The notes under the pieces were generated by a model. The model was not told where the DNA came from, ran no database searches, and saw only the letters and a program-made list of their open reading frames with translations. This document shows, piece by piece, positions 3,579 through 54,295 of a DNA stretch of 64,000 nucleotides. The stretch comes from Oceanispirochaeta sp. (GTDB taxonomy: Bacteria; Spirochaetota; Spirochaetia; DSM-2461). Positions within the stretch are counted from its first letter, which is position 1; the number at the start of each line of letters is the position of its first letter. The stretch spans positions 384,001 to 448,000 of the forward strand of contig CAXXOA010000001.1 in the NCBI GenBank assembly GCA_963666275.2. The letters run 5' to 3'. The position numbers were made by a program, and so were the translations under genes.

Positions 3579-4208
3579 TTATGGGGTTAATTCTACTGCA
3601 AAATCATCGGGTGCCATGAAAAGCAGGATAATGGGAATCTCTATGACCATGGAGGAACCATAGATGTTTACGAGGATCTGGTCTGTTTCCTCCATGCCGG
3701 AAGAATCAGAATCGACTTTCACTCCCGCCTTTTTCATGTCTTTCAGGTCGCCGCTGAGATCAATGAGCAGCGTGTATTTTGCTCCCGACATAAAGGCCAA
3801 AGCCGTTTCATCGGTTTCTTCCTCATCACTGAGAGAGGGGATGACGATCTCATAGCCTTTTTCTGTTTTCACAGGCAGAAAGTAGGTCGTTTCAAGCCCG
3901 GAAGTGATATCACTGACTTTTCCGGAGACTTTGATTTCCGCCCCGATATGGTAGGGCGTATTCACAGGGCTTACGCTCGCATACAGCTCGTTGTATTCCC
4001 CGAAGATTTCGTCTCCGATCTCATCAAATTCGGAGTAGTCCATCTCCTCTCCGGAAAAAGAGCCGATCATGTCCATCATCGCTTTCTGCATTGTGTAGCG
4101 AACTGTTACATCCGCTTTGCCCTTATGGAGAGAGACTGTATGGAAAATATCAAGGCAGCTTGTCAGTAACAGGGTGAATGCACAGAGTGCTATTAGTTTG
4201 AATTTCAT
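3579..4208 (-). CDS. Hypothetical lipoprotein
   Basis: MKFKLIALCAFTLLLTSC lipobox, acidic 209-aa protein, AAGGA RBS. Confidence 0.75.
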   Translation of the reverse strand: MKFKLIALCAFTLLLTSCLDIFHTVSLHKGKADVTVRYTMQKAMMDMIGSFSGEEMDYSEFDEIGDEIFGEYNELYASVSPVNTPYHIGAEIKVSGKVSDITSGLETTYFLPVKTEKGYEIVIPSLSDEEETDETALAFMSGAKYTLLIDLSGDLKDMKKAGVKVDSDSSGMEETDQILVNIYGSSMVIEIPIILLFMAPDDFAVELTP

Positions 4209-4384
4209 TTTGTTTCCTTAATAGGGAGAGATCGTTATACCCTATTATACAGAGTTCTCCCTGTTTCTGTCAGTTCATAAAACTTATCTATGAAATTAAC
4301 GTTCTCTTGTCAGGCTGAGTAAACAGGTATCTGCCGGAAAGGGGTTTTACACGGTTAATTGAGGAGTTTCGGTTCTGAGAATTG

Positions 4385-5062
4385 TCAAAGTGTGGAGATT
4401 CTCCTTTTCATTCTCCTGTAAGGAGATGAAATTCCTTCCTTTTTCCAGGACAGATACCCTCTGACAGCCAGAATCAGAAGGATTACATAGAGGAGAGAAA
4501 GGAATTTCACCTCTTTAATCCAGTAAAGGCCGATGGCAATCACATCCACCACAATCCATATGAGCCAGCTTTCAGTCCGTTTGCGGGCCAGCAGATACAT
4601 GGCGGCAAAACTGGCCACTGTGGTGAACGCATCCAGGTAAGGAAAGTCGGCGGCCAGAGGGAAGAGGGCCGGAAGAAAAAGGTGGATCCGGGCCATGAGA
4701 AAACCGCCGGTCCCCGACAGGAGAGCTATGGCCCCCAGCCAGAGCAGGTTATTCAGGCGGGTACCTCTTCTGACAGCGATCTCTCTGGTGTCTCTTCGCT
4801 CCCGACTCCAGTACCACCAGCCGTAGGTGCTGGCTCCCAGGTAGTAGATCTGTTCCAGGCAGTCCGAATAGAGCTGGATCTGATAAAAGAGCATACCGTA
4901 GAGGATCACCGAGGCTATTCCCACGGGCCAGTTGAGCATTCTTTTCTGCGAAATGAGCCACACCGACCAAAGGTAAAGAATCGTACCCACGAATTCGATA
5001 TAGCTCATGGGGTACCCCAAAAAGGTGAAAAATATACTGTCTATGGAAAAGAAATTTACCAT
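4385..5062 (-). CDS. pnuC: Nicotinamide riboside transporter, PnuC family
   Basis: Multi-TM protein with PnuC motifs (NWPVGI, YGWWYW, PYLDAFTT, ESWLIWIVVD). Overlaps the nadR-like gene. Confidence 0.92.
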   Translation of the reverse strand: MVNFFSIDSIFFTFLGYPMSYIEFVGTILYLWSVWLISQKRMLNWPVGIASVILYGMLFYQIQLYSDCLEQIYYLGASTYGWWYWSRERRDTREIAVRRGTRLNNLLWLGAIALLSGTGGFLMARIHLFLPALFPLAADFPYLDAFTTVASFAAMYLLARKRTESWLIWIVVDVIAIGLYWIKEVKFLSLLYVILLILAVRGYLSWKKEGISSPYRRMKRRISTL

Positions 5063-6051
5063 GTGCGATTCTCCTTGTAATGATTCAGTTCCCGGGCAAC
5101 CCGGTCCATCCTTTCGTTCAGACTGCCTTCCAGAAGGACATAGGGGATTTCTCTCCTATCCAGATCCCGGCGAAACCTCCTTTGGAACAGGCTCCTATGG
5201 ACTTCTCCGGAACGGTCCTCCGTATCGTCATAGGGAATATCGTCGCCGCAGAGAAAATGAAGGTCGTATCGGTCCCGGCAGTCATCGGCCAGAAGCTCCA
5301 GTTCCTTTACAGCCGATCCATGATAATCCAGAGCGAAATGATAGGTAGACAGGGCTCCCGTGTCAACAAAGAAGTAATCCCCCCCTATATAGGCCTTTTC
5401 TACTTCCTTTTTCCGGTGAATCAGAGCTAATTCCAGGAGCTGTTCACCGGTCAGACGACGATTCCTCTGGTGCTTTTCCCAATATTCCCGGCCGTACTCG
5501 GCCATCCAGGGGCAGGCATATTTTTCTGCCAGGGCTCGGGCCAGGGTCGTTTTGCCCGTGCCGGGGGCTCCGTGAAATACGGCTTTGATTATATGGTCAA
5601 AGTAGACCGGCGGGGGTAAGAATTCCCGAAATGCCGGGGGATTTTCCCGTATCATGGTTCCCGAAACAGGGATGTGGATTCTCCGGGGATCAACTTGGCG
5701 GTTTCGGCACTTAAGGGCGCGGCTCATGTGTTCCCCGTAGGGTTCGGAGGAGTAGAAACTGTGAATAGGAGTACCCTTGAGAACTTTAAGAACGTACTCT
5801 TCCTGACATTTCATTATCTCCGGTGAGTAGCCCGTCTCCTCCGGTCCGTCCGGGGCCGTAATTGGCTCAACCCGATGGGGGAAGCACTCCCTAATCCAGG
5901 CCGCCCTTTTATTAAGCGGTATGGATGTAAGACGGCTTTGGTAGATAATCACCTTAACCAGGTCCATCTCTCTAAGGGCCGTTTCGATGACATGGGCATG
6001 GCCCCGATGGAAGGGAGCGTATTTACCCAGGCATAATCCGATTTTTCTCAT
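5056..6051 (-). CDS. nadR: NadR-type NMN adenylyltransferase / nicotinamide riboside kinase, without an HTH domain
   Basis: N-terminal GKYAPFHRGH (HxGH nucleotidyltransferase) and VSGT motifs. C-terminal P-loop GAPGTGKTT and EYGREY. Adjacent to pnuC. Confidence 0.88.
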   Translation of the reverse strand: MRKIGLCLGKYAPFHRGHAHVIETALREMDLVKVIIYQSRLTSIPLNKRAAWIRECFPHRVEPITAPDGPEETGYSPEIMKCQEEYVLKVLKGTPIHSFYSSEPYGEHMSRALKCRNRQVDPRRIHIPVSGTMIRENPPAFREFLPPPVYFDHIIKAVFHGAPGTGKTTLARALAEKYACPWMAEYGREYWEKHQRNRRLTGEQLLELALIHRKKEVEKAYIGGDYFFVDTGALSTYHFALDYHGSAVKELELLADDCRDRYDLHFLCGDDIPYDDTEDRSGEVHRSLFQRRFRRDLDRREIPYVLLEGSLNERMDRVARELNHYKENRTW

Positions 6052-7403
6052 AGACTGTCGGGGACCTCCGTTTGGAAGGTTATGATTTTCCTATCCTCAT
6101 CCAGGCCGATGTTATCGCCCATCTTAAGGGGGAGGTTTTCGGCTCCGTACCTCTTGAGTACATTCGTGAGAGAGGTGAGAACTTCCTCTTCCTTTCCCGT
6201 GTTTACGGGCAGACCTACTTCCAGTGAGTAATCAGCCCTCTGCACTATTTTATAGGCCGGGAGGGCCAGGGGCGCCAGGGCGCGGGAAAAATCCACCGTA
6301 TTGATCCACCTCCCTTGGGGCAGGGAAAAACGTACCGGCTTTCGGCCCTGGAAATCTATCAGATATAACCTGTCTTCTTCTCTTTCAAACCGGCAGAAAT
6401 CACCCGTTCGGTAGCGGATAAGGGGTAGGTAGGGATTATTGCCCCCGCTCAGGGCCAGCTCTCCCCACTCTCCGTCGGGAAGGGAGCGGTCCTCTTCAGG
6501 ATCGAGGACCTCCAGATAAAGGTCGGGGCGCATGGATTGGGTCATCCCTTTTCTTGTCCAGGCGATGTTACGGCACTCGGTCATGGAATAGACGTCAAAC
6601 AGGGGGCACTGAAAGTGGGCTTCCAGCCTATCGGCCAGTCCGGAAGAGAGGGCCATCGCACTGGAGATCATGGCGTGGGGTCTCAGGGGGATTCCCCTTT
6701 CCATCAGGGCGGCGAAGGCCAGGGGATCCCCGGTCAGCAGGGAGGGATTGAGCTCTGTCAGATACTCCCTGCAGTCATGCGGATCTCTCCACTGGCCGGG
6801 ATGGAGGTTGATCTTTATAAAACCGGCCCCGTCCAGATAGGACGAGACAGAGGCGTATGTCAGTGTTTCCAGCTGGCTGCAGATCAGGGCTATGGCTGTT
6901 GTGCCCGGACCTCTTGCCAGGCTAATCCCTTCGGTTGAGAGCATTTTTTCTACCTGCGGCAGCCAGGAGGAGGCTTCTTCCGGTCCGAAGATCACATCCA
7001 GCGGGGCTCCCGTTGTTCCCGAGGTGGCGTAGCAGAGGATATCATCGAGGGGGGCACTGTCTCTCACAAAGTTCCAAGGCGCCCTTCGCAGGTCCTCCCG
7101 GGTAAAGGAGGGGGCTCGGGAGAAATCCGCCGGATAATCCCGGTAAGCGGGAACGTCGGAAAGGACATCTTGGTAGAACCCTTCTATGAAGTCTTCCGTA
7201 GCAAAATCCCCCCTACCGTCCATATAGTTTCTGTAGGCATTCAGGTTTTCAAGATGTTTCCCGGTCAGCCGGTCTCCGGACTTGAAATTGTACAGGGGAG
7301 AGTTGGGATGCTGGCGCAGAGCGTTAAGCCAGTTTAGATTTTCAGCGGCGGGGAACCGTTCCTCATCGGTGAGAACCGGCATAATCTCTTTACTCTCTGC
7401 CAT
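6048..7403 (-). CDS. Adenylate-forming enzyme, phenylacetate-CoA ligase / CapK-like (ANL superfamily)
   Basis: Motifs ATSGTTG, YSMTE, RYRTGD and GRK. Confidence 0.85.
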   Translation of the reverse strand: MAESKEIMPVLTDEERFPAAENLNWLNALRQHPNSPLYNFKSGDRLTGKHLENLNAYRNYMDGRGDFATEDFIEGFYQDVLSDVPAYRDYPADFSRAPSFTREDLRRAPWNFVRDSAPLDDILCYATSGTTGAPLDVIFGPEEASSWLPQVEKMLSTEGISLARGPGTTAIALICSQLETLTYASVSSYLDGAGFIKINLHPGQWRDPHDCREYLTELNPSLLTGDPLAFAALMERGIPLRPHAMISSAMALSSGLADRLEAHFQCPLFDVYSMTECRNIAWTRKGMTQSMRPDLYLEVLDPEEDRSLPDGEWGELALSGGNNPYLPLIRYRTGDFCRFEREEDRLYLIDFQGRKPVRFSLPQGRWINTVDFSRALAPLALPAYKIVQRADYSLEVGLPVNTGKEEEVLTSLTNVLKRYGAENLPLKMGDNIGLDEDRKIITFQTEVPDSL

Positions 7404-7974
7404 AGGTATTAGCCGCTTCCCGGGCTCTCTTTTCCCGCATCTTCCTTTTTATTTCCTCCGCCCGGCTGTGGGCCTGGCGGCTCTGTTCTTCCAGTTCGGC
7501 GCGATAGAGAGTATCCAGGGCCTTCAGCCTGTCTTCCCCTTCACTGGGCGTTTCTCCCCGGGGGAATAGACCGCACCAGTGAAGGGCCAGGCGGCACAGC
7601 TCTTCCCTGCGGGCCGGGTTTCCGATCATCTGGGGAGGAGAGACAAGGCGGACTAACCTGTTCATATGATCGTACCCCCGGGAAAACCCCGGGCCCAGTA
7701 CTTCTTTTCCGTGAAACCAGGGGTGGGAGTAGAGATAGGCCAGAACCTGCAGCCCCTGCCAGTGCCCGATCTCCCAGTTTTCCCAGCGTTCTTCCAGCCG
7801 GGATGCCAGTTCCCCGGGTATTTTCACTTCCTGGAAAATAAAGAGATCCTTCACAATCGCCAGGCTGTGAACCTTGGACCGGGAGTGGGAAGGAAAGGGG
7901 AGAGGGGATTCCAGAAACAGAGACGGGCACTCGCTGAGGTAATTCAGCAGCTCTTCAAGGGGCGGGCTGTTCAT
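7390..7974 (-). CDS. Hypothetical helical protein with a C-terminal coiled coil (MoxR operon)
   Basis: 194-aa ORF overlapping both neighbours, with GGAGG RBS and a charged tail ending YGRE. Confidence 0.75.
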   Translation of the reverse strand: MNSPPLEELLNYLSECPSLFLESPLPFPSHSRSKVHSLAIVKDLFIFQEVKIPGELASRLEERWENWEIGHWQGLQVLAYLYSHPWFHGKEVLGPGFSRGYDHMNRLVRLVSPPQMIGNPARREELCRLALHWCGLFPRGETPSEGEDRLKALDTLYRAELEEQSRQAHSRAEEIKRKMREKRAREAANTYGRE

Positions 7975-9719
7975 CCTTTTCCTCCAAATTTCCCGGCGGC
8001 AAATTTTTTCGCGAACCGGGAAAGCTCTTCGTCATTGGACACATAGTGAATCGTCCATCCCTCTTTTCGCAAAATATCCGCCTCCTTTTTATGATACTCC
8101 GGCCGGGAATAGAGGACCAGTGACCCGCCGCCTCCGCAATTCTCCAAAGCCTTCCTGGCTACATCCCAGGTTTTCTCTCCCTCTCCATTCCAACCTCCTC
8201 CCAGCATGGCAAAAATATCATCATCGGTAAGGAGAAGGATATGGGTCTTGCTTTTGCGGAGGCGGGAGAAGTCCGTTCGCAGCCGGGGGATGCCAAAGGC
8301 GTATCCGGTCCCGAGATAGGATACAAGGACATCCATTATTTTACGGGGATCCCGTACAAAGCCCTCCGTTTCCATGAAAGAGCCCGGTTCACCCGAAAGG
8401 GTTACTTTCACACGGGCTCCCCCACGCAGGGCGGATTGGGCGATGATGGTCCCCGCCAATACAGGCCAGCTGAAATTAATGGCCGGATTACCCATAGAAC
8501 CGGAACAGTCTATTCCTATGTAAAGATCCAGGGGGGTGTCGGCCAGGGTATCCCCTTCATCAGGGGCAAAGACACGCTTTACCGTGGTCATCCCGGGAAT
8601 AATTTCGGGGCTTCTTATGAGGGAACCGAACCAGTCTATTTCCCCCGGATTATCTCCCAGGTCCCACGACTCGAGCCCTTCGGGAATGACCCCTTCGGTC
8701 TGGGGAACCTTCTCTTTGGGGAAGGGTATGAGATAGGGGGCGGATATTTGCTTATAGTACCGGGCCAGAGCTTTGTTTATATCCAATCCCGCCGGGTCTA
8801 GCTGCCGTAAATAGTCCAGATAGTCCCGGGGAGATTTGTATCTCTGCCGGGGCCCTTCCCCTCTGGGGGACCTGTCGGGAATCCTATCGGCCGAATTTAT
8901 CCCGTCCCGATCCCTCAGGGGCTCATCGTCAATGTCTTCCGGGGGGGCTTCCAAGTCTGCCCCGACTCCGGAACAGCCTTCGGAAGCTTTCAAGGCATCC
9001 ATTATGAGAGTCCAGGTTTCGGCTTTACCCTCCTCCTCCCACAGATAGGGGTAAAATAGAATTGCATAGGAGTAGGCCCCTTCCAGCCAATCCCCCGAGT
9101 AGGAGCGTATAATATGAGCCCCCATTTCGCTATCCCTTTCCATCTGTTCCCCCCTGTCTTTACTGGGGCGGACTTGGGTCAGCTCCCCGGGCTGGAGGGA
9201 GTAGAGCTTCTCGTAAATGCCCAGATAAAGGTTCCAGACGGGGGAGGAATTAGCTCTTTTATCCCTTTTCTGAATCTTTTTGTAGATATCATCCATGCGA
9301 AGGCCCCGGCGGCTCTGGAGATGGTAGTTTATCAGATGATCGGCAAAGAGATTCATAATTCGGGGGGCATGCTCCTCCTTTTCGGTCAAGGCTTTTCTGA
9401 CCAGGGTGAGCATGCGCCCGTTATCGGTGAGATTGGCCGGCACATAAACGTGGTGGCCAATCTCATGGGCCAGTATCTCCAGGGCATAGTCGTCCAGGCC
9501 GTACTGCTTTATGAGCGAGCCATCCAGGACAATGCGGTGATCCTTGAGCCTGATCATGGCAAAGCTGCCCTCCAGTCCCTGTTCCTTCGCTTCCTCCCGG
9601 GAAAAGCACCAGTGGGGAGGACGCATCATTACCAAGTGGCTCCACTGCCCCAGGGCTTCTTCCCATCGGTCGTCCCACATGCTGCGCATTTCATCCATCA
9701 GTGTATCACTTCTACCCAC
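7971..9719 (-). CDS. HEXXH metallopeptidase-like domain fused to a C-terminal vWA domain
   Basis: ILAHEIGHH zinc motif, acidic Pro-rich linker, and vWA MIDAS motif YIGIDCSGSM with a downstream LLLTDDD strand. Confidence 0.85.
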   Translation of the reverse strand: MGRSDTLMDEMRSMWDDRWEEALGQWSHLVMMRPPHWCFSREEAKEQGLEGSFAMIRLKDHRIVLDGSLIKQYGLDDYALEILAHEIGHHVYVPANLTDNGRMLTLVRKALTEKEEHAPRIMNLFADHLINYHLQSRRGLRMDDIYKKIQKRDKRANSSPVWNLYLGIYEKLYSLQPGELTQVRPSKDRGEQMERDSEMGAHIIRSYSGDWLEGAYSYAILFYPYLWEEEGKAETWTLIMDALKASEGCSGVGADLEAPPEDIDDEPLRDRDGINSADRIPDRSPRGEGPRQRYKSPRDYLDYLRQLDPAGLDINKALARYYKQISAPYLIPFPKEKVPQTEGVIPEGLESWDLGDNPGEIDWFGSLIRSPEIIPGMTTVKRVFAPDEGDTLADTPLDLYIGIDCSGSMGNPAINFSWPVLAGTIIAQSALRGGARVKVTLSGEPGSFMETEGFVRDPRKIMDVLVSYLGTGYAFGIPRLRTDFSRLRKSKTHILLLTDDDIFAMLGGGWNGEGEKTWDVARKALENCGGGGSLVLYSRPEYHKKEADILRKEGWTIHYVSNDEELSRFAKKFAAGKFGGKG

Positions 9720-10603
9720 AGGTAATGGCTATCCTCCTTCAAATGGATTTTAAGTTTTCCCTTTTCCTTCCCCCCGGGAAGGCTAAAGATTTTTTCCTCA
9801 TGGAAGGGATAGGGTACAAGCCGGCAGCCGAAGGAGTCGGCAAAGAGCAGAAAAGCCCTCTTCTGATCATGGAGAATGAGCCCGGTGGAACCATGAGTGT
9901 CTGTCCCTTTCAGGTTGCGGCAGTGGGGAGGTAGGAGAAATGGCCCGCCGTATCCGGCAAATCCGCCCAGCCGCCCCCCCGTATAGTCCCCCGGGATAGC
10001 CCAGGGATTCTCCCGGGCCGATTCCAATTGGCTGCGGCTATAGGGAAAAAGGGACGCCAACTGCCTATCCGAAAGCAGCTCACATCCATCCAGAGCTGGT
10101 ATGCGCAATTCGGCCATTCCCAAGGTCCAGGCGGCCAAACGGCCCAGGGCAAAGACCTCTTCCTTTCGTTCGCATACCTTAAGGAGGGCTGCCATTTTAT
10201 CGAGCCAGTCCCGCCGGGTCCGGGCATCGGGGAGAGAACGAATCCCGTTGTCCCAGGACGTAAGAAAGGGGCGTAATTCACCGGAAGTGAGGGCTCCCTT
10301 CCGGTTGATAAAAGGAACCAGGAGCAGCCAGCCTTTAAGATAATCCCCATTAAGCCTCATCTCTCCGCCCCGCACCAGAGAGGAGAGGGTCGTTTCAATT
10401 CCGTGGATCATCAGGTTGAGCAGATGGTCCGATTCTCCGAAGGCAGCATAGAGAGCGGTGAACAGAGGTGTCAGGTGTTTACCCAAATCGGCATCGGCCA
10501 AACGGGGATGGGAGAAAAGCAGCCCGTCCAGAACCGGCTGGATGTTCTCCTCTTCCCGGGCTAGAAAAGAGGCCAGACCCCTTTCTATTTCCACTGGAGC
10601 CAC
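9698..10603 (-). CDS. Hypothetical protein (MoxR operon)
   Basis: 301-aa ORF overlapping both neighbours, with a glycine-rich GGFAGYGGPF motif and LFADSFG. Confidence 0.72.
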   Translation of the reverse strand: MAPVEIERGLASFLAREEENIQPVLDGLLFSHPRLADADLGKHLTPLFTALYAAFGESDHLLNLMIHGIETTLSSLVRGGEMRLNGDYLKGWLLLVPFINRKGALTSGELRPFLTSWDNGIRSLPDARTRRDWLDKMAALLKVCERKEEVFALGRLAAWTLGMAELRIPALDGCELLSDRQLASLFPYSRSQLESARENPWAIPGDYTGGRLGGFAGYGGPFLLPPHCRNLKGTDTHGSTGLILHDQKRAFLLFADSFGCRLVPYPFHEEKIFSLPGGKEKGKLKIHLKEDSHYLWVEVIH

Positions 10604-12162
10604 CTCTTGTAGTTTGTATAGCGCTGGTGGAAGTACTTCAATTTGAGAATATCGTCGGCCATATGCCCGTACAGTTTCCCGCTTCGGCTCATTTCGCTGA
10701 GGATCTGCTCAATCTGGAACATTCTCTTCTCCACCTCCGAGATGGAGAGACCCTCCATCCCTTTCTCAAAGAGTTCCTCCATCCTGGCCACCGGGTCGTA
10801 TTCGTCCAGTTTCAGCCGGGCATACTCCTGGCAGGAGAGGTCGAAGCATTTTCGTATCCAGGTTATCCGGTCAACCCGGTATGGGGCGTTCTCCTCCTTC
10901 TCGAAGAAGGGCGATTCCAAATAGGGAGTAAGGGAGTCGTGCAGAACAAAGGGCAGAATCTGCCGGACATCTTCCAGTTCCACCTCATCCAGCCCTCTGA
11001 AGTAGGCCATGGCCTTGGCATAGAGCAGAAGGGTCATGAGCTTTCTTACGGAGAGGCCGTTTTTGGCCTGGCTTCCCAGATCACGGTTCATATCCTTGCC
11101 GCTTTCGAGTTCCATCAGTGATTGAAAGTCCAGGCCGGAAAGCTTGGCCGTGTCCTTTGTCATATAGTCCAGCTTCGTCGATGCCGGTTCGAAAAACTCA
11201 AACTGCCGGGCGAAAAATTCGATTTTACGGCGGAGCGGGGCGGGAATGGCAACGGCAAGGATCTCCTTATACAGGGTGTCCAGCTCCTCATCGGTAAAGA
11301 TTATCTCCCGGGGAATGTTCTTTTCCGGCTTGTACCCCGTTTCTATTCTCCTTTGGAGATCCTCTACGAAGCGGGTATTGAAGTGGAGAGCCTTTATAAC
11401 CACATCGATTCTGTCTTTGAGCGCCTCAATAACCTGATAGGTTCCGCCCCCGGCGTCATCGTTGGCGGTCAGGTACCAGGCTGCTTCGGGGCATTCGTAG
11501 ATCTGATCCATAATTTCCGCATAGTTATCCGCCAGAACTGTGAGCAGGGCCGATTGGGTTCTGGTGGGGATCCGGTTGTACTCATCAATGATCTTAACCC
11601 TCATTTCCAGCCATTTCCGCCAGGAGATCCGGATTTTGGTGGGATCTTCCGACTTCATGAGATCACCGGGGAAGGGGTGTCCCAGCAGGTCGGCTACAGT
11701 CATTTGGGGCTGACCATGCTGAATGGCTCGTTTCATATCTTTTAAATCGTAACCGGCCAGGAGTCCCATGAGAATGGACGTGGCTGTTTTTCCCCGGCCC
11801 GGACCGCCGACAATCAGACAGCGTTTGCGCACCGCCAGGGTCAAAAGGGGGATCAGGACAAAACTGGAGTAGCACTGGCCGGTGGGAAGATCAACCTGAA
11901 CCTTGGAGTCCCCGAAAAAGTAGGACTGGGGAGCCTTGTCGTTATACTCAATATCGTAGAAAGGGCTGATAATAGCCGTATTGGTAATCCAGAAATAGGC
12001 CTGGCGCAGTTTTTCATCCAGTCCCGGGGAGTCTTCAGATACGGAACTCTCAGGGGTGGGATCAAAGAGGTCCCTGATCCTGAAAGGGGATTTTTTTCCT
12101 CCCTTTTCTCCTGGATTGGTCGGTGCCGCCGGTATATGATAAGATGGGTTTTCCGGTTTCAT
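10585..12162 (-). CDS. MoxR-family AAA+ ATPase
   Basis: Walker A GGPGRGKT, Walker B IIDEYNR followed by TQSALL, sensor LTAN, and ALKDRI arginine finger. AGGAG RBS. Confidence 0.9.
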   Translation of the reverse strand: MKPENPSYHIPAAPTNPGEKGGKKSPFRIRDLFDPTPESSVSEDSPGLDEKLRQAYFWITNTAIISPFYDIEYNDKAPQSYFFGDSKVQVDLPTGQCYSSFVLIPLLTLAVRKRCLIVGGPGRGKTATSILMGLLAGYDLKDMKRAIQHGQPQMTVADLLGHPFPGDLMKSEDPTKIRISWRKWLEMRVKIIDEYNRIPTRTQSALLTVLADNYAEIMDQIYECPEAAWYLTANDDAGGGTYQVIEALKDRIDVVIKALHFNTRFVEDLQRRIETGYKPEKNIPREIIFTDEELDTLYKEILAVAIPAPLRRKIEFFARQFEFFEPASTKLDYMTKDTAKLSGLDFQSLMELESGKDMNRDLGSQAKNGLSVRKLMTLLLYAKAMAYFRGLDEVELEDVRQILPFVLHDSLTPYLESPFFEKEENAPYRVDRITWIRKCFDLSCQEYARLKLDEYDPVARMEELFEKGMEGLSISEVEKRMFQIEQILSEMSRSGKLYGHMADDILKLKYFHQRYTNYKRWLQWK

Positions 12163-12761: not shown

Positions 12762-13079
12762 CTAGAATCCAGTAACCAAGAGATCAATAGCAGCAGTAAT
12801 TTGCAGTCTGAGATCTTTCAGATTACCGACTTTCGATCCAATCAGAGAAACAGGAACAGCAGCCATTTCAGACAGGAATATGATGAATTTTCTGTTTTGG
12901 ATAATGCAGGGAATATGGATACGGGTCAGCATTTGATCTGAATATTCATCAGCCACTCTTAATGGTGCTACAAGTCGTGTTGCCAGAATATCCATAGCGT
13001 CCGATTGCAGATTAATCAGATAGGGTACTTCTCCGGAACTTTTAGGATTTTTGTTCTTATAGATATCAAACTGAGGCAA
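12762..13079 (-). CDS. ccdB: CcdB-family gyrase-poison toxin
   Basis: MPQFDIYKNKN...PYLINLQSD...LATRLVAPL...ITAAIDLLVTGF. TTG start directly follows the ccdA stop. Confidence 0.9.
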   Translation of the reverse strand: MPQFDIYKNKNPKSSGEVPYLINLQSDAMDILATRLVAPLRVADEYSDQMLTRIHIPCIIQNRKFIIFLSEMAAVPVSLIGSKVGNLKDLRLQITAAIDLLVTGF

Positions 13080-13298
13080 TTAAAAGGTCCTCAAATCATC
13101 ACTGAATACACCAGTAGTATCAATGTGTTTGTTGTAGCTTTTAATACTGTCTTTGTTTTCTGCTACCCAGGATTCTTCAGCAGCCTTTTTTAATTCTTCC
13201 CTGAGAGCTTTTTCCAGAACTGAGGAAATAACAATTTTCTTTTTTCTGGCAGCATCCAGAAGGTCTTTATCAATACTAACGTTGGTTCTGGCTTTCAT
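13080..13298 (-). CDS. ccdA: CcdA-family antitoxin
   Basis: RHH-type KARTNVSIDKDLL and C-terminal WVAENKDSIKSYN...GVFSDDLRTF. ATG 13298 preferred over 13316. Confidence 0.9.
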   Translation of the reverse strand: MKARTNVSIDKDLLDAARKKKIVISSVLEKALREELKKAAEESWVAENKDSIKSYNKHIDTTGVFSDDLRTF

Positions 13299-13310
13299 GT
13301 GCATATTGTA

Positions 13311-13375: not shown

Positions 13376-14289
13376 TTAATTATTTTTGTCGATTTCTGCG
13401 TTGATCATAGCTTCAACAGGGCTGTCAGGTTCCGTATACTCCAGGACTGTCTTTCCGTCAGAATCAACAGCCAGGGGATCGGCCCCTGCCTGAAGGAGCA
13501 GTTCAACCACTTCTATATGATCGTTAGCTAACATCAAAGGGGGTTTACCTAAATTACTTCTTAGATCAGGAATGAATCCTTCCTTGAGTATCTGTTTGAC
13601 CCTTTCAAGATCTCCTTCCAACGCAGCTTTATGTAATTCTGACTCACCCCATCTATCGAGGATTATCCTTCTAAATCCCAGAGATTTTAATTCTTCCGCC
13701 AAATCAGGATCTGCATATCTGGCAGGAGGATATCCCTGGTTATCAGTGGCATTGCCGTCGGCGTCAAATTCCAGCAGCAGATCAATTATCTCTCTGCTCA
13801 TGTCGCTTCCGTTCTCATTCAAGGCATAGTGAAGAGCTGTCCATCCGTGGAAATCGCGAATATTCGGATCAACCCCCTTTTCCAGGAACAGTCTCAGATC
13901 CCCGGGCTCTGCTCCCGGGCCGCTTCATGTATGACTGTTTCTCCCTTGTAGTTGGGAAGGGAAAGAGCCGCACCTTCTTTCAGCAGGTACTCGGCTATCT
14001 GAACCGAATCATTTTCTATTGTACTGAAAAAGATGGGACTTCCGGGATCGTTTACTTCCGCTCCGGCATCAATAAGGAGTTTTACTATGGAAAGGTTTTC
14101 AACCCTGCAGGCAAAGTTAAGCAGATTATATTCGTAATCGTTAAGATCTACTCCCTGCTGAAGAAATAGCACAAGAGATTCCTGATTACCTTGACCTATG
14201 GCTCTCTGCAATAGCCATTTCCAGGAGTCAGATGATAACTCCTTTGTTTCCAGGATCTTTTCTATGGTATCGATTTCTCCTTTATCCAT
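13376..14289 (-). pseudogene. Frameshifted, 5'-truncated ankyrin-repeat gene
   Basis: The two ORFs join if one base is added near 13895-13903, giving ...HEAAREQSPG(I/D)LRLFLEKGVDPNIRDFHGWTALHYAL..., a complete ankyrin repeat. The 3-TM anchor is missing. Confidence 0.8.
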
Positions 14290-27632: not shown

Positions 27633-29342
27633 TTAGACCCCTTTCTCCAGATAGTCAAAGTATTTCTCCATCTCCCCGCTGAAGAGGGCAATCTCCTCGG
27701 CGTCCTGCTTTTCCAGCAGTGATTCGAACTGACCCAGAACCTTGCCGATCTTTGTCCGCTCCTCACCCAGATACTCTTCCCATAGCCTCTCTCCGCGCGC
27801 TATAAGGGCCTTGTTTTTTCCCGTCTCCCGGGGGTGGATTTTCAGGGCTTCCAGTTTTTTCAGCTGTTTCTCCAGTTCCTCCCTGGAGAGAACTCCGGGA
27901 TTCTCCTCAATGATGAGGCTCTTTCTTTCACCTGTTTCAGGAATATGGACTTCCACCTCCAGAAGGCCGTTGATGTCGTAGGTATAACGGACTTCTACTG
28001 CAATGCGGCCCGCCGGGGCGGAGGGGATGTCCACACTGATGGTCCCCAGCCTTATGTTGTCTTTTACCTGCCTGTGTTCACCCTGGTAGACTTCGATCTT
28101 CATTTGCTTCTGGTTGTCTTTGACCGTTCCCAGCCGCTCCATCCGGGAAACAGGCACGGTGCTGTTCCGGTTTATAATGGGCAGGAACATTCCCGGGCGC
28201 CTCATCTCCCCCTGTACATCCATGACAGCAGTTCCCAGGGTATAGGGGCAGATATCCGTGAGAATCACATCCTCAAGGGCTTTGTCCCGGGCTTTGAGGC
28301 CCCCCTGGATTCCCGCTCCCATCCCCACTATTTCATCGGGGTTCAGGGAGAGAGAAGGAATTCGTTTGAATATTTTATAGATCATATCCCGGAAGATCGC
28401 CATTCGGGTGGCACCTCCCACCAGCACAAGCTCGTCGATCTCTCCGGTATCGACTCTGGCATCCCGTATGGTCCGTTCGATCGGTCTGTAGAGCTTTTCC
28501 AGCAGGGGAGCGGCCGCATGGGTGAACTCTTCCCGGGTGATAGTCAGGTCCCGCTTCCGGGCTGTCCCTGATACGGCCTTTCCAAGGGTAACGCTTATGG
28601 TAGAGGATTCCTTTTCGGAAAGGGCGAATTTACACTTCTCAGCCTGACGGTAGAGGATCTCCCTTTCCTTCTCCGTCAGAGAGGAGAGGGAAAAGGAGTG
28701 TTGATCCAAAAAAAACTGAACCAGAACCTCAGTAAAATCTTCTCCTCCCAGGCGGTTGTCTCCGGCTACAGCGTGGACTTCCATGATCCCATCGGTGAAC
28801 TCCAGAAGAGACACGTCGAAGGTTCCCCCTCCCAGGTCCAGAACAAGAAACATCCCGTCTCCGAATCTTTCGTGCAGACCGTAGGCAATGGCAGCCGCGG
28901 TGGGTTCATTCACAAGCCTTTCCACCTTGAGGCCCGCCAGTATCCCGGCGTTTCGGGTGGCCTTCCTCTGAGTATCATTAAAATAGGCGGGAACGGAAAT
29001 CACTGCCTCTTCCACTTTTTCTCCCAGAAAGACTTCCGCATCCTCCTTCAAAGAGCGCAGTACAAGAGAGGAGAGCTCCTCGGGAAGGAAGTTCCGGTTT
29101 CCCAGGGTAAAAACCTTTCCCGAGCCCATGTCTCTTTTGAAAAAAGAGGCCGATTCCTGAGGATGTGTTATCAGCCTGTTCCGGGCGCTTTCACCCACCA
29201 GAATTGTTCCTTCTGCGTCTACATTGATCACAGAGGGGGTCAGTGTACTTCCCAGGCTGTTGGGGATGAGCTGAACCTTCTCTCCGTTCCAGTAGGAAAC
29301 CAGTGAGTTGGTGGTTCCCAGATCTATTCCTATAATTGCCAT
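27633..29342 (-). CDS. hscC: Hsp70-family chaperone, HscC (Hsc62) type
   Basis: GIDLGTTNS, DLGGGTFDVS and LVGGATRM. 569 aa with LKIHPRE C-terminal region. Follows a DjlB/C-like gene. Confidence 0.88.
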   Translation of the reverse strand: MAIIGIDLGTTNSLVSYWNGEKVQLIPNSLGSTLTPSVINVDAEGTILVGESARNRLITHPQESASFFKRDMGSGKVFTLGNRNFLPEELSSLVLRSLKEDAEVFLGEKVEEAVISVPAYFNDTQRKATRNAGILAGLKVERLVNEPTAAAIAYGLHERFGDGMFLVLDLGGGTFDVSLLEFTDGIMEVHAVAGDNRLGGEDFTEVLVQFFLDQHSFSLSSLTEKEREILYRQAEKCKFALSEKESSTISVTLGKAVSGTARKRDLTITREEFTHAAAPLLEKLYRPIERTIRDARVDTGEIDELVLVGGATRMAIFRDMIYKIFKRIPSLSLNPDEIVGMGAGIQGGLKARDKALEDVILTDICPYTLGTAVMDVQGEMRRPGMFLPIINRNSTVPVSRMERLGTVKDNQKQMKIEVYQGEHRQVKDNIRLGTISVDIPSAPAGRIAVEVRYTYDINGLLEVEVHIPETGERKSLIIEENPGVLSREELEKQLKKLEALKIHPRETGKNKALIARGERLWEEYLGEERTKIGKVLGQFESLLEKQDAEEIALFSGEMEKYFDYLEKGV

Positions 29343-30832
29343 GATGTTTTCTCCCTGTTTAAAAAGAATACTCCCCGGGGCATCTCCTTATGGGCAAAAC
29401 TATCCGCCATAAAGCTGAATTCCTTCCTATCTCCCTCCGTATCTTGAGAAAGGCTCCGGGATAGCAGCCGGTAGCCGAAATCGTCGTAAAAGAGGGCCAC
29501 GAATATTCGCCGGCCATCAGCCCTCTCATTTAAAAAAGGAATTTTTTTTCCTTCTTCGTTCCTCTCGAAAAGTGACATATTCTCTTCGGTAAGTTCCAAA
29601 ATTAAAATGCGGTAACCCTTTTCCCCCGGATCACTTAACAGCATAAGCTGTCCCTCTAAATCTTCCCACAGTCCATTGTATTGGGCGGAGAACTCTTCCG
29701 TTTCCCAGAGTATGACGGCGGAATGGTCTTCTCCCGGTGACCGGAGGGTAATGCGGCCCATCTCTTTTCTGCTTGCTGTATTTACAAGGGGGACGGATAT
29801 GTCCATGGGGAAGGGGGGGATTTCCTCTCTCGGAATGACCGGTTTTTCCATGGTCTTTTCCCCGGTGGAGTATGAAGAGCTGTCTGAGGTATAGGTAAAA
29901 ATTTTATGAAATATCAGTAACAGGGCCGGGATGGCAATAATCAGAAGAAGAACTTTTACCCACTCGGGCTGGGGCTCTGCTTTGGCCGTCCATATATTGA
30001 CCGTTTGCCAGGCCTCTATTGTTTTTTTTGCCAATTCCAGAGACTTGTCATTCCGGCATTTTCGTTTAAGCTCTCTTAACCCCTTCCGGGCTTCTTTAAA
30101 CCGGCCGGATTCTATTAAATCAATAACCCCGTCTCTCCGGATCAGATAGGCCTCCCGGTCAACGATTCCGGCGGGAGCCTGGTAGTCCAGGTCCCAGTGG
30201 GGCTGATCCATCCGCTTGAATACCTGGCTGAGAACTGCACTGTTCTGTTTGCTGTTAAAGTGAGAGTGGTTTTCGCTCAGGGAGAACTGTTCGTTCAGAT
30301 ATTTGAGAACATCCTGGGGGATATGGGGATGGGAGAGAAGAAAGATCAGGAGAACTTCCCGGTACTGCTCTCTTGCGTTTAGATTGAACAGATTTAAATC
30401 ACAGAGAATCCTCTCCCAGCTTTCTTTTTGTATTCTGTCTGTATAATTATTGTATAGCCGCTGCAGTTCCGACCGGAAGGCACTGGTATCAACCTCTTCT
30501 TCGGATGAGGTATTCTCTTTTCTCTGCTCAGCAAAAGGGGGGCCTGATTCACTGGTTTCTGTTTTTCCGGGGAAGAGAGTCTCTTCTTGAGGGTCCTGCT
30601 CTTCCGTATTCAAACTGAACGGACGGCCGGTAGAGCTGTCCTGAGTCTCTGCCTGCTCCAAAGCCAGCTCATAGGCCCGGCGCAGCTCCTGGAATTCCTC
30701 AGGCTTTTCTTCCGGATTCGTAACCTTCAGTTTTTTGAGATAAGCTCTTTTGATGGCTTTTCGGTCTGCTGTTTTTTCAATTTCAAGGATTTTCCAGCAT
30801 CGGGTCAGGCTCAGTAAGTCATTAAAATCCAT
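29330..30832 (-). CDS. J-domain co-chaperone (DjlB/DjlC-like) with one TM segment
   Basis: CWKILEI...AIKRAYLKKLKVTNPEEKPEEFQELRRAYE, TM segment VLLLIIAIPALLLIF, overlaps hscC. Confidence 0.8.
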   Translation of the reverse strand: MDFNDLLSLTRCWKILEIEKTADRKAIKRAYLKKLKVTNPEEKPEEFQELRRAYELALEQAETQDSSTGRPFSLNTEEQDPQEETLFPGKTETSESGPPFAEQRKENTSSEEEVDTSAFRSELQRLYNNYTDRIQKESWERILCDLNLFNLNAREQYREVLLIFLLSHPHIPQDVLKYLNEQFSLSENHSHFNSKQNSAVLSQVFKRMDQPHWDLDYQAPAGIVDREAYLIRRDGVIDLIESGRFKEARKGLRELKRKCRNDKSLELAKKTIEAWQTVNIWTAKAEPQPEWVKVLLLIIAIPALLLIFHKIFTYTSDSSSYSTGEKTMEKPVIPREEIPPFPMDISVPLVNTASRKEMGRITLRSPGEDHSAVILWETEEFSAQYNGLWEDLEGQLMLLSDPGEKGYRILILELTEENMSLFERNEEGKKIPFLNERADGRRIFVALFYDDFGYRLLSRSLSQDTEGDRKEFSFMADSFAHKEMPRGVFFLNREKTSWQL

Positions 30833-35049: not shown

Positions 35050-37395
35050 TCAGGGCTCCATGGTCACCGAAATATGCCTGTCTGCCGACAGGCCCCTATC
35101 GTCAAGGAGAATCAGATCGTATTCCCCCGGGCCGGGCTCCCAGTAGAGATCCTCTCCGGGGCCGGATTTTCCCAGGAACTGTCCGCCGGCAAACCAGAAA
35201 AGTTCCCGGGCATCACCGTCGGCGGATCCTATGAGGGGAATCCGTCCGTATCTGTCGTTCTGGGGACGGAGAATGTACTGGGCATTGGCCACGGGAGAGA
35301 GGATCCGGGGCGGCTGGGTAAAGCTGTCGGCTCCTTCCGTTCCGTAGGCTTCCTCGTACTCCGGGGGGACCGGGCGGGGAATCCCCGCCTGCTGGAACAG
35401 GATGAGCAGATCCGAAGGCCAGACCTCCCGGACAACCCTAATGGTATCCTCCCCGGCTCTGCGGGTTCTCAGCCCTGTGTCTTTACGCAGGAATACAGGA
35501 CGGTGGACCCGGCAGGGCGCAATAGGGGATACTCCCGGGATAAACAGGGCCGGTTCGGTTCCGGCACAGTATTCGGTGGGGATCGCTCCCGATACAGAGC
35601 AGACCTCCACCAGTCTGATCCCTTCGGGCAGTCCGGGGGGAAGAGTCTCTTCCACGAGGGGTTTTAACTCCCGGCAGATGGAGAAGAGAAGGGGGCCTGC
35701 GGTTTCCCGTCCCAGAAAGGCCGGATTCCCCTCCCCGCTGAAATTGCCCACCCACACGGCCACGGCATAGGGGCCGTAAAGGCCTATGCTCCAGGCATCC
35801 TTGAATCCAATGGAAGTTCCGGTTTTGTAGGCTACCCGCATTTCTCCGGCAGGGGATGACCAGTCCTGAAAGGGAGGAAAGCCTTCGCCCGGGGGCGGAT
35901 TCCGTTCCAGTATCCTCCGGACAATCCCCGCCGCCTGGGGAGAAAAGAGTGAACCCTCGGGCATATCCTGCAGAACTTCCCCATGGCTGATCATGATATC
36001 CTTCATCTCGCCCCCGTTCGCCAGGGCTGCATACAGGGCTGTGAGTTCCAGCATGGTCAGCTCCGCCGATCCCAGAACCAGGGACAGACCGTAGTAATCC
36101 CGGGGTTTGAGATCTCCCAGTTCCGCTTTTTCAAGCAGTTCGTAGAGGGAGGTCTTTCCCAGCAGGGCATTCAGCTCAACCGCGGGGATATTCCTGCTGT
36201 TGACAAGGGCATTCCATACGGAAACGGGCCCTTTGAAATCTCTCTGATAGTTGTCCGGCGCATAGGAACTGAAATTCACAGGCCGGTCATAGAGGATCGT
36301 ATTGGAATGGATCAGGGAGTGATCCATAGCCAGAGCATAGATGAAGGGTTTCAGGGTAGACCCCGGGGACCGGCGGGAGGCCGCTCCATTGACCATTCCC
36401 TGTATGGACGCATTGAAAAAGCCAGCGGATCCGACCATGGCCCTGAGTTCCATGGACCGGGTGTCCAGGATCACAGCCGCGGCGTTTCTCACCCCTTTCT
36501 CCTTCAGTTTGTCCACATACTCTTTCACCTGCCGGTCCAGAAATTCCTGGAGTTCCCCGTCTATGGTTGTCCTGACTGTCCGGTTTACAGACTCTCTTTT
36601 ATTCAGCATCTCTGTCAGATGGGGGGCTTTGTAGGCGGGACGGCCGATGACTTCCGGCAGCAGGGACAGATGGAAAATCTCATCCTCCCTCCGGGGATAC
36701 ATCTCCTTCCACCGGGCATAGAGAAGGTTTCGGGCATTCCGGGCCTCTTCCGTATTCCTTTCGTACCGGGGATCCCTGTTGAGAGGATCCTGGGGCAATA
36801 TGCATAACAGCATCATTTCGTCCAGGTTCAGTTCCTCCGGAGGACGGTTGAAAAATATCCAGGACGCAGCGGCAAAACCCTGAATATTGCCGCCGCAGGG
36901 AGCCAGGTTTATATAGGCTTCCAGGATTTCCTGCTTGCTGTAGCGCATTTCAAGGGAGAGCGCCCGGATAATCTGGCGGATTTTTCCCGGTATGGAATGG
37001 GTTTCCAGATGGAAATACATTCTTGCCAGCTGCATGGTTATGGTGGATCCGCCGATCCTCCGGTCTTTCAGAATATAGGTATGATAGAAGGCCCGGACCA
37101 GGGCCCGGGGCTGGATTCCCGGATGGGAGTAGAACTGCTGATCCTCCTGAAGGAGGAGGATCTCAAGAAAATCCCGGGGGAACTCCGAGAGATGGGAGTA
37201 CATCCTGTACTGTTCATCTCCGGCGGGATAAATTCCAAGGAGTTCTCCTTCCCGGGAAAAATAGGTCCGCGAAAAGGGGATCCTGTCCAGCAGGGGCGGG
37301 GCTTTTGTAATCAGGGCAGCCATTCCCAGAGAGAGCAGGGCTGCCAGAACCAGAATGACCGGAGTGCCTCTCCCTCCGGGGATGTTCAGCTTCAG
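35050..37395 (-). CDS. pbpC: Penicillin-binding protein 1C
   Basis: Transglycosylase motifs EDQQFYSHPG and GGSTITMQLAR. Transpeptidase motifs STLK, SRN and KTGT. Directly downstream of A2M. Start placed at CTG 37395 so the TM anchor is included (track start is 37323). Confidence 0.9.
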   Translation of the reverse strand: MKLNIPGGRGTPVILVLAALLSLGMAALITKAPPLLDRIPFSRTYFSREGELLGIYPAGDEQYRMYSHLSEFPRDFLEILLLQEDQQFYSHPGIQPRALVRAFYHTYILKDRRIGGSTITMQLARMYFHLETHSIPGKIRQIIRALSLEMRYSKQEILEAYINLAPCGGNIQGFAAASWIFFNRPPEELNLDEMMLLCILPQDPLNRDPRYERNTEEARNARNLLYARWKEMYPRREDEIFHLSLLPEVIGRPAYKAPHLTEMLNKRESVNRTVRTTIDGELQEFLDRQVKEYVDKLKEKGVRNAAAVILDTRSMELRAMVGSAGFFNASIQGMVNGAASRRSPGSTLKPFIYALAMDHSLIHSNTILYDRPVNFSSYAPDNYQRDFKGPVSVWNALVNSRNIPAVELNALLGKTSLYELLEKAELGDLKPRDYYGLSLVLGSAELTMLELTALYAALANGGEMKDIMISHGEVLQDMPEGSLFSPQAAGIVRRILERNPPPGEGFPPFQDWSSPAGEMRVAYKTGTSIGFKDAWSIGLYGPYAVAVWVGNFSGEGNPAFLGRETAGPLLFSICRELKPLVEETLPPGLPEGIRLVEVCSVSGAIPTEYCAGTEPALFIPGVSPIAPCRVHRPVFLRKDTGLRTRRAGEDTIRVVREVWPSDLLILFQQAGIPRPVPPEYEEAYGTEGADSFTQPPRILSPVANAQYILRPQNDRYGRIPLIGSADGDARELFWFAGGQFLGKSGPGEDLYWEPGPGEYDLILLDDRGLSADRHISVTMEP

Positions 37396-37399
37396 CGCT

Positions 37400-51291: not shown

Positions 51292-52233
51292 TTAATGAAA
51301 CAATTCCCCGATGCTGTCGCCTGTATGGATCCGTTTGATGGCCTCTGCTATCAGCGGGGCTGCTGAAATAATCTGCAGTCCCGGCAGCTCTTTTTCCGGG
51401 GGAACATCCACTGTGTTGGACACAAGAAGACCCTGAATATCCAGATTCTTAAGCCGCTGGATCGCAGGGCCGCAGAGAACCGGATGAACCGCTCCCACCA
51501 GGATATCCCGGACACCCGCTTTTTTAAGGGTTTCCACCGTTTTGAGAATGGTACCGCCTGTGGATATTTCATCATCGAAAATCAGAACATCCCGGCCTTC
51601 CACTTCGCCCACCACATGACCCTGCTGGACCTCTGTGTCGCTGATCCGTCTTTTATCGATAATCGCCAGGGACAGTCCCGCCAGTTCGGCAAAGTGGGCC
51701 GCCCTTTTGGCTCCCCCCGCGTCAGTGGCTACAGCCACCAGGTTTTCCGTATCGTAATGGCTCTTCACATAGTCCGCCAGAAGGGGAATCGCTGTGAGAT
51801 GATCCACAGGCATGCTGAAGAAGCCGTGTACCTGATCCGAATGGAGGTCCATGGTAAGAACCCTGTCGGCTCCTGATGTCTTGAGCAGATCCGCTATCAG
51901 TCTGGCTGTAATGGATATGCGGGGGGCGTCCTTTTTATCCGACCGGGCGTAGGAGTAGTAGGGGATCACAGCGGTGATTCTGCCGGCCGATGCGCTGCGC
52001 AGGGCATCCAGTGTGATCAGAAGGGTCACAAGATTATGGCTCACCGGCTCTGCCAGGGACTGAAAGACGAACACATCTTTTTCTCTGACACTCTCCAGGA
52101 TCTGAACCGAAAGGTTGTCATTGGAAAACCGGGATATTGCCAGGGGGCTCAGTTCCAGTCCCAGACGGGTACAGACCTGCTCCGCCAGGTCGGGATTGGA
52201 TCCGCAGCAGAAAATCTTCATGGCATTTTTCAT
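51292..52233 (-). CDS. prs: Ribose-phosphate pyrophosphokinase
   Basis: VIPYYSYARSDKK, MDLHSDQ, DAGGAKRA and DDEISTGGT. Confidence 0.93.
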   Translation of the reverse strand: MKNAMKIFCCGSNPDLAEQVCTRLGLELSPLAISRFSNDNLSVQILESVREKDVFVFQSLAEPVSHNLVTLLITLDALRSASAGRITAVIPYYSYARSDKKDAPRISITARLIADLLKTSGADRVLTMDLHSDQVHGFFSMPVDHLTAIPLLADYVKSHYDTENLVAVATDAGGAKRAAHFAELAGLSLAIIDKRRISDTEVQQGHVVGEVEGRDVLIFDDEISTGGTILKTVETLKKAGVRDILVGAVHPVLCGPAIQRLKNLDIQGLLVSNTVDVPPEKELPGLQIISAAPLIAEAIKRIHTGDSIGELFH

Positions 52234-54062: not shown

Positions 54063-54120
54063 GACTTAAAAACTCCTTCTTCTGTGTTCTTTTTTAAAAT
54101 AGCGGACCTGCTGTTCTGAC

Positions 54121-54279: not shown

Positions 54280-54295
54280 TCAGGCTCTCCTTTTT

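Follow-up and report, generated by a model that had tools for sequence, protein, structure and literature searches.

MoxR-type AAA+ ATPases of the NorQ-NorD, CbbQO, CoxDE and RavA-ViaA systems act with a partner that has a C-terminal vWA domain, a DxSxS MIDAS and an acidic linker; the clients of the NorQ-NorD/CbbQO group are a respiratory enzyme or Rubisco. In group 2.2 jumbo phages a peptidase is located N-terminal to the vWA domain, beside MoxR (PMC7824862), and ternary conflict systems combine MoxR-vWA with further conserved genes and are patchily distributed in Planctomycetota, Myxococcota and other groups (PMC7159879). The locus analysed here, in a 64,000-nucleotide stretch of Oceanispirochaeta sp. 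DNA (the window), has the same MoxR-vWA pairing as the first group, the peptidase-vWA order of the phage proteins and the patchiness and additional conserved genes of the conflict systems. Differences from the NorQ-NorD/CbbQO group are the 525-residue MoxR with its extended C-terminus, the zincin in the partner and the additional orphan protein g2; the clients, moreover, would be g4 and g5. Ligase, g2, g4 and NadR are not mentioned in the passage on the jumbo phage proteins, nor are NadR, PnuC or acyl-CoA in the main text of PMC7159879. The genes of the cassette are:

g1, 10585–12162, minus strand: MoxR-type AAA+ ATPase, 525 aa; Walker A GGPGRGKT, Walker B DEYNR
g2, 9698–10603, minus strand: orphan of roughly 300 aa whose N-terminal two thirds are helical and which has a small beta domain
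g3, 7971–9719, minus strand: zincin-like metallopeptidase (HEIGHH), acidic linker and vWA domain with DCSGS MIDAS; 582 aa
g4, 7390–7974, minus strand: orphan all-helical protein, 194 aa, with a long last helix and the tail EAAxxxxRE
g5, 6048–7403, minus strand: PaaK/ClxA-like adenylating ligase, 451 aa; TSGTTG, YSMTE, YRTGD
g6, 5056–6051, minus strand: NadR-like protein, 331 aa, with NMN adenylyltransferase (HRGH) and ribosylnicotinamide-kinase-like (GAPGTGKT) domains, without HTH
g7, 4385–5062, minus strand: Pnu-family transporter, 225 aa, WxxWxxxD motif; optional member

The cassette combines an ATP-driven motor for protein remodelling with a ligase, two orphan proteins and an NAD-making enzyme; g1–g5 are taken as its core. 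The original prediction had described seven minus-strand frames overlapping their neighbours by 4–22 nt, with intact catalytic motifs. All frames and overlaps were recovered (19, 22, 4, 14, 4 and 7 nt between successive longest ORFs from g1 to g7, the 19- and 22-nt values hinging on the choice of GTG starts), and all eight motifs were found in the translations. When g3 is started at Met8, the coordinates leave an overlap with g2 of 1 nt (TAATG); g2 has 298 residues in the database call and 301 as longest ORF. An Rfam search of the window gave zero matches, and a promoter and terminator scan came out close to chance (12 versus 8.0 and 19 versus 13.2).

That the five core genes co-occur in other genomes was borne out: among 127 loci examined in eight named phyla, the 61 that hold all five have them in identical order. 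The gene arrangement is beyond chance, because this order is kept across phyla. Cultured hosts include Leptospira yanagawae and Desulfosarcina variabilis. The cassette is patchy among kin (present in 1 of 60 relatives), its GC content is 54.2% against a genome mean of 47.8%, and homology to the nearest other copy is confined to the stretch between the start of MoxR and the end of PnuC. The seven tightly packed genes are a mobile bacterial cassette that is transferred as a unit. The ccdB, ccdA and ankyrin genes pointed out previously do lie close to it in the window, but this setting is incidental; they fall outside the homology with the nearest copy and were rejected as members. Flanking genes are mostly housekeeping and clade-specific, and the position is stable in several Leptospira species. 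Radical SAM genes are found in nine loci, tailoring-type genes recur in the cluster, and L028 has an asparagine-synthetase-like ORF. Stretches around g1–g4 without g5 were read at L012, L033 and G296.

MoxR-type features (Walker A and B, lid) are present in g1, which matched Pfam AAA_3 (E 9e-7) and AAA_lid_2 (E 3e-6), both above cut-off, and gave a single match in the PDB search (2r44, E 7e-6). Its best segments are 57–70% identical across phyla, and its C-terminal extension is helical. Neither g2 nor g4 matched any Pfam or NCBIfam family, and the ESM Atlas held nothing usable for either. The predicted structure of g2 (pLDDT 82) gave a top fold match of Z 6.9, which is not significant and covers the helical part only, the beta part being barely tested; a loop, GGFxGFGGxFxxPP, is conserved in the beta domain (alignment A1). 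We infer that g2 is probably an adaptor of the MoxR-vWA ring. The HExxH of g3 and its DxSGS MIDAS motif are each present in 101 of 101 near-full homologues; H85, E86, H89, D127, D404, S406, S408 and D499 are invariant among 26 aligned homologues, and NxxxDxxIN follows downstream of HEIGHH. Pfam matches were weak (Peptidase_M48, E 0.021; VWA_2 in 4 of the 26). No relatives of g3 were found in viral contigs, phages or plasmids.

The orphan g4 is predicted to be all-helical (pLDDT 91). Fold searches gave no clear match (best Z 4.4) and no ubiquitin-like fold, and no carrier fold was among the matches listed. Homologues numbered 732 among 50% representatives. The final residue is Glu in 143 of 149 top matches and in 70 of 80 closed ORFs in the loci; in nine of the 80 it is followed by an added Trp or Asp, staying in register, and in one it is absent; a free alpha-carboxyl on this Glu therefore cannot be what is activated in every member. 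We regard g4 as a candidate for a carrier, a tag acceptor or a ligand of the MIDAS. Its LD(S/T)x motif, which we liken to a phosphopantetheine-attachment motif, was set aside as such a site: it sits at a helix start and has Thr in 32 of 149 matches and in the window.

Ligase g5 matched Pfam AMP-binding (E 5e-11) and has the features of PaaK-like ANL enzymes (P-loop, YxxxE, YRTGD, hinge Arg), and it remained under the cut-offs of the PaaK (42 bits against 646), DVU1553 (97 against 300) and FlxY models. Its closest solved relatives in a profile search are 9s3l (E 1e-26), 4r1l, 2y27, AjiA1 and 6siw. The region of the terminal catalytic Lys aligns poorly (alignment A4), and a divergent segment is polar (Q177, T180, K197, N199). 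Complex prediction weakly suggests that g4 sits on g5. The pair scored 0.50 (runs of 0.50, 0.52 and 0.29; best of three controls 0.00), a level at which a pass is wrong more often than it is right. Of 157 solved pairs 116 reached the mark, as did 2 of 215 mismatched pairs; passes at 0.60 or less comprised just 18 of the solved pairs and the two mismatched ones. The runs had at least 63% of contacts in common, the partner pLDDT was at least 70, and the predicted contact vanished on replacing g5. The two genes are duplicated together in L028 and L110, and mirror-tree correlations did not single out this pair: g4 tree distances correlated with those of g3 (r 0.82), g5 (0.65) and NadR (0.48) over 36 loci.

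NadR and PnuC had been placed outside the core in the original prediction. This view did not hold for NadR, which is a working partner of the core and not a bystander: it adjoins the core in 42 of 61 five-gene loci, in five arrangements of position and strand and from several deep clades, and is absent from the stretch examined in the other 19. Full-length NadR was found in 43 of 45 genomes with g3 versus 14 of 389 without, in four samples (27/27 vs 1/44, 7/7 vs 3/194, 7/9 vs 6/92 and 2/2 vs 4/59) whose member genomes are related, such that the counts overstate independence. Two of nine Myxococcota with g3 had no NadR match. The co-occurrence also holds when the genes lie 17–98 kb apart on one contig, and in G283 a pnuC-nadR-g5 block is about 29 kb from g1–g4. 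Among the neighbours of unlinked NadR genes (45 proteins scanned, of about 100 listed) no partner recurred except PnuC, with g5 seen once. NadR is almost always present in genomes with the rest of the cassette and is its most informative partner.

The g6 protein, with its HxGH nucleotidyltransferase and P-loop kinase, matched Pfam CTP_transf_like and AAA_28 and, by profile, solved NadR structures (E 1e-75 to 1e-42); its TIGR01526 score of 137.7 bits is under the cut-off of 341. It is the sole NadR match in the genome of the window, and its clade is without the WxxW segment present in other clades. A kinase-less adenylyltransferase directly follows g5 in L028, L071, L100 and L110. PnuC lies beside NadR in 21 of the 42 loci; g7 matched Pfam NMN_transporter (E 1e-53) and TIGR01528 above cut-off, and WxxWxxxD/N was found in 22 of 22 PnuC sequences, a motif that thiamine PnuT has as well (PMC5749112). 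Genes for de novo NAD synthesis are present in the five hosts tested: nadA and nadE each scored above cut-off, and a gene resembling nadD accompanies them.

The five core genes co-occur widely, and a machine for protein modification or maturation, as proposed earlier, is still the best reading. Its form that we tentatively favour, at somewhat below an even chance, is a cytoplasmic load-and-release machine centred on g4, in which the ligase would load or tag the g4 tail with an NAD-linked cosubstrate and MoxR-vWA-zincin would strip and reset it. The CoA-independent-type ligase g5 would bind g4 and attach a small molecule to the tail, likeliest at the conserved Glu. A pyridine nucleotide would be cosubstrate or by-product, made or recycled by the NadR adenylyltransferase (e.g. 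NMN to NAD), with the NadR kinase and PnuC as optional feeders; the link to NadR comes from the genomic data, and the chemistry is what we infer. By analogy, a ring of MoxR together with g2 and g3 would grip the g4 tail via the vWA MIDAS and remodel the g4-g5 complex, and, as NorQD, amino-group carriers and pearlins suggest, the zincin would hydrolyse the conjugate, releasing the product and resetting g4. The narrower version, that the ligase attaches an NAD-derived group to the g4 Glu or uses NAD as adenylate donor, the dedicated adenylyltransferase then recycling the NMN, before the AAA+ motor with the vWA-zincin protein unloads it, seems rather unlikely; if true, it would be a new class of carrier-protein chemistry on a carrier of new fold and would give rise to a pyridine-nucleotide product not known so far, be it a metabolite, a signal or a reversible tag on proteins.

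The conserved acidic tail equally fits a MIDAS ligand; the MIDAS in NorQD binds an acidic client residue (PMC9976466). It is possible, albeit doubtful, that g4 inhibits g5 or is a subunit of it, bound non-covalently, and that its tail Glu serves only as sixth ligand in the vWA MIDAS. MoxR-g2-g3 would then remodel the g4-g5 complex so that g5, a small-molecule ligase that may act on nicotinate or a pyridine nucleotide, matures or regains activity, as the clients of NorQD and CbbQO do. The invariant MIDAS, the Glu register kept even away from the terminus, the g3-g4 tree correlation as the best of those measured and the weakly predicted g4-g5 contact agree with this activase; it leaves the invariant zincin site without a role, and the vWA fragment with g4 and without g5 scored 0.00, a weak point from one control run in a method that often misses small interfaces. 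Degradation has been proposed for MoxR-vWA-peptidase operons (PMC3495828), and the jumbo phage pairing of MoxR with a metallopeptidase-vWA protein is similar. Tag-directed ATP-dependent proteolysis, with g5 tagging cellular proteins, g4 as adaptor, MoxR unfolding and the zincin degrading, is nevertheless quite improbable, as the near-obligate NadR and the radical SAM and amidotransferase-like insertions would go unexplained and g4, at 194 aa, lacks a ubiquitin-like match.

An anti-phage or conflict role, compatible with either mechanism, would have MoxR-vWA gate a proteolytic or modifying response while NadR/PnuC restores NAD. Patchiness, cassette transfer, the GC shift, the adjacent ccdAB, TCAD9-type kinase and nucleoside-deoxyribosyltransferase-like genes at some loci, and a phage NadR described as NAD reconstitution (PMC9503650) speak for it; we nonetheless judge it unlikely. 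The 2023 PADLOC library gave no matches for g1–g5 or g7 and only P-loop-sized ones for g6, the core is strongly conserved, and, as described above, the flanking genes are largely housekeeping and the position of the cassette is stable in several Leptospira species. The Kaur 2020 third components (VMAP, iSTAND, FtsH, beta-propeller) had no Pfam match in g2–g4 or their homologues, and the fixed architecture in alignments A1–A4 has no variable effector; the distance from the MIDAS Asp to the end of the vWA domain is 174–306 residues, with a median of 182 (n=95), leaving neither a post-vWA fusion nor an effector such as the ternary conflict systems have. Nothing tested here supports the anti-phage or ternary-conflict reading offered earlier. 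That NadR-PnuC is an independent vitamin-salvage pair hitch-hiking on the cassette appears very improbable: NadR does occur without g3 and is missing near some cores, but the multiple arrangements and clades, the unlinked co-occurrence, the kinase-less versions after g5 and the de novo NAD genes of the hosts argue against it.

The cassette offers a MoxR-vWA pair with likely clients encoded alongside. Its link to an NMN adenylyltransferase is strong and specific, in hosts with their own de novo NAD synthesis, and suggests that pyridine nucleotides are put to a use not recognised so far. With six soluble proteins the system is amenable to test, and it contains two protein families without a fold match. 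As stated earlier, it matched no characterised pathway among the papers searched; a description of the cassette was absent from this literature, subscription papers being outside the search, and from two supplementary files of PMC7159879, which may be incomplete as TCAD9 is likewise absent.

Further comparison concerns the ligase and its putative substrate. The ligase of amino-group carriers is an ATP-grasp enzyme. In contrast, g5 is of ANL type and is not a PEARL, and g4 is a 194-aa helical protein without a fold match whose Glu is not always terminal; carrier proteins and pearlins have no AAA+ motor and no NadR. Like the clusters of LysW, Vzb22 and the pearlin scaffolds (PMC9303977), the cassette encodes a small protein whose acidic C-terminus is conserved, together with a peptidase and a ligase; at some cassette loci radical SAM tailoring genes are a further likeness. 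The closest solved relatives of g5 by profile search are ClxA, NatL2 and AjiA1, PaaK-like ligases that form amides or esters without CoA (PMC12519233). The cassette has no benzoxazole cluster genes and the acyl-pocket region aligns poorly, being polar in g5, whereas the adenine-, phosphate- and ribose-binding positions align with those of the three enzymes.

The seven overlapping genes were confirmed by ORF reading of the window: seven minus-strand ORFs occupy positions 4385-12162, as originally predicted, and all motifs listed in that prediction were found in their translations. With each ORF taken at its longest, the claimed overlaps between neighbours are 19, 22, 4, 14, 4 and 7 nt, the two largest varying with the choice of start codon. 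By Pfam and NCBIfam, g1 is MoxR-type, g5 an AMP-binding enzyme (under all specific cut-offs), g6 NadR-like without the HTH domain and g7 a Pnu-family protein. The zincin-vWA protein g3 matched weakly; g2 and g4 had no match in either database. The predicted folds of these two orphans are confident (pLDDT 82 for g2, 91 for g4) and gave no clear match in a structure search. Each gene is present in one copy in the window's genome.

Conservation of the core (g1-g5) was assessed at 127 loci. Species genomes supplied 47 of them, with MoxR as the anchor; these match by construction because the profiles were built from their members. The other 80, the best of 182, came from metagenomes with g3 as the anchor. 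All five genes were present at 61 loci spanning eight phylum labels, with order and strand identical in every one, which bears out the predicted co-occurrence across genomes. Where genome loci extend at least 6.5 kb beyond the MoxR start, 25 of 31 have all five. The HExxH motif of g3 was retained in 101/101 near-full homologues (96 HExGHH, 5 HEVGHY), as was DxSGS of the vWA metal site (101/101). The operon is real and widespread. Five loci (L101, L102, L103, L108, L112) form a divergent clade with a g4 terminus (F/H)ED, SE replacing GD at g5 profile positions 227-228, and mostly HEVGHY in g3. Two loci carry a close MoxR homologue with no further core gene within 10 kb (L003) or with g2 as the sole other one (L035).

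The closest of the other copies (L001, identical with G019) comes from another genus within the family and is 92% identical to window 4464-12024, the similarity running out close to the start of MoxR and the end of PnuC. g3 was found in 1/60 relatives and 0/10 of the same genus; the operon is a mobile cassette. Its GC content (54.2%) is reached by 1.1% of 2623 same-sized genome windows; window 20-64 kb is likewise GC-high (52.4%). The surroundings are as follows.

12762-13304, minus strand: ccdA-ccdB pair, ~600 nt upstream of the operon and absent from the shared cassette; ccdB 40% GC
1632-35000: no fewer than eight ORFs with ankyrin repeats, several of them carrying hydrophobic segments at the N terminus; a single gene may be divided between 13376-13822 and 13894-14289
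27636-30832, minus strand: Hsp70-like gene; adjoining 500-aa protein with a weak DnaJ domain
35053-43204, minus strand: bacterial alpha-2-macroglobulin; a penicillin-binding protein adjoins
52233-57678, minus strand: methionine synthase in two ORFs and a homocysteine methyltransferase-MTHFR fusion
5338-5366 (inside nadR, upstream of pnuC) and 4244-4273 (upstream of a 209-aa ORF, 3579-4208), minus strand: sigma-70-like sites, 11/12 matches, the total number of such sites in the window being near chance

NadR lies inside the stretch examined at 42 of the 61 five-gene loci: after g5 on the same (26) or opposite strand (5), upstream of MoxR (4 and 6, one figure per strand) or between g4 and g5 (1). 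PnuC is beside it at 21 of these 42. Ten of the 19 remaining loci have at least 2 kb on each side, and two of these ten (L026, L034) have NadR elsewhere in the genome. The locus NadR proteins fall into several deep clades (FastTree only). Full-length NadR was also scored against g3 in whole genomes of four samples, each including a centre genome picked for having the system. It was found in 27/27 genomes with g3 vs 1/44 without (family of G061), 7/7 vs 3/194 (phylum of G064; 17 more with the kinase domain only), 7/9, one cut by a contig end, vs 6/92 (class of G065; 4 more kinase-only) and 2/2 vs 4/59 (the window's kin; 6 more with the transferase part only). The sums are 43/45 vs 14/389, for which Fisher values overstate the link because kin are non-independent, many MAGs are incomplete and 10-35 candidates were scored per genome. 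Several g3-NadR pairs share a contig at a distance of 17-98 kb; others fall on separate contigs, where the break may be one of assembly. In five hosts nadA and nadE score above cut-off and nadD has a match (above cut-off in 3/5), so a housekeeping role for NadR is unlikely. NadR is a partner of the core, and mere hitch-hiking is highly improbable. Four loci have a closed transferase-only gene (154-167 aa) directly after g5, and in G283 a pnuC-nadR-g5 block is ~29 kb away from g1-g4; it would seem, then, that the adenylyltransferase is the activity required, with g5 as its closest partner.

The best solved relative of g5 is 9s3l, which is taken to be ClxA since the residues named in the ClxA paper (Y218, Y219, T222, N226) match the aligned chain; the code is missing from the paper's main text. 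In the accessible part of that paper, ClxA is a ligase making amides and esters directly (PMC12519233). NatL2-type and AjiA1 entries were also among the g5 matches. In the alignment g5 diverges in the acyl-pocket region and is polar there, so its substrate is probably other than phenylacetate.

The g4 profile matched 732 proteins among 50%-identity representatives. The C-terminal residue is Glu in 143/149 top hits (RE in 122) and in 70/80 closed ORFs, the others having Trp added (four), Asp (five) or Glu missing (one). Most of the invariant positions hold Arg, Glu, Asp or Pro, and the sole conserved hydroxyl is Ser/Thr155 (148/149). One three-chain prediction (g5, g3 residues 315-580 and g4, with Mg) scored 0.50 vs 0.00 for the best control and 0.00 once g5 was replaced; a g4-g5 complex is weakly suggested. 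It gave no contacts, and a pass at 0.50 is wrong more than half the time unless the complex was likely a priori. The g4 tree distances track g3 more closely than g5, which counts against a special g4-g5 tie. The pair is duplicated at L028 and L110.

Accessory genes, at a minority of loci, favour small-molecule or nucleotide chemistry. Seven loci carry one radical SAM family and two carry a shorter one; at L042 and L056 a nucleoside-deoxyribosyltransferase-like gene separates g1 from g2.

L030 8123-9943, L041 8250-10556, also L044, L118 and (fragment) L053: isochorismatase-like and TCAD9/APH kinase fusion, some with a dual-specificity phosphatase domain, adjoining the operon or pnuC-nadR
L028 14397-21541: expanded cluster of g4-g5, short radical SAM, a further g4-g5 belonging to a different clade, transferase-only NadR and, after it, an ORF that we take from its sequence to be asparagine-synthetase-like, extending past the locus end

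As the likeliest mechanism, though tentatively, we infer that g5 would load or tag the tail of g4, that the transferase would supply or recycle pyridine nucleotide, and that MoxR, g2 and g3 would bind, remodel and cleave, freeing the product. An activase model lacking a covalent step is somewhat unlikely but not far behind in probability. Proteolysis directed by the tag is improbable. A defence role, part of the original prediction, is doubtful: the operon core fails the tests for PADLOC systems. For the operon as a whole there is a fair chance of new chemistry.

The operon is apparently undescribed; a literature search found no account of it, and one may yet be listed in subscription articles or in supplements beyond its reach. 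Comparison extended to the accessible parts of PMC7824862, PMC5749112, PMC7221760, PMC9503650, PMC9976466 and PMC3495828. A ternary conflict system is not supported, the operon failing the tests for all four such systems as described in the accessible part of PMC7159879. The operon belongs to the MoxR-vWA kind, and it is similar in logic only to carrier-protein pathways, as far as the accessible part of PMC9303977 describes them.
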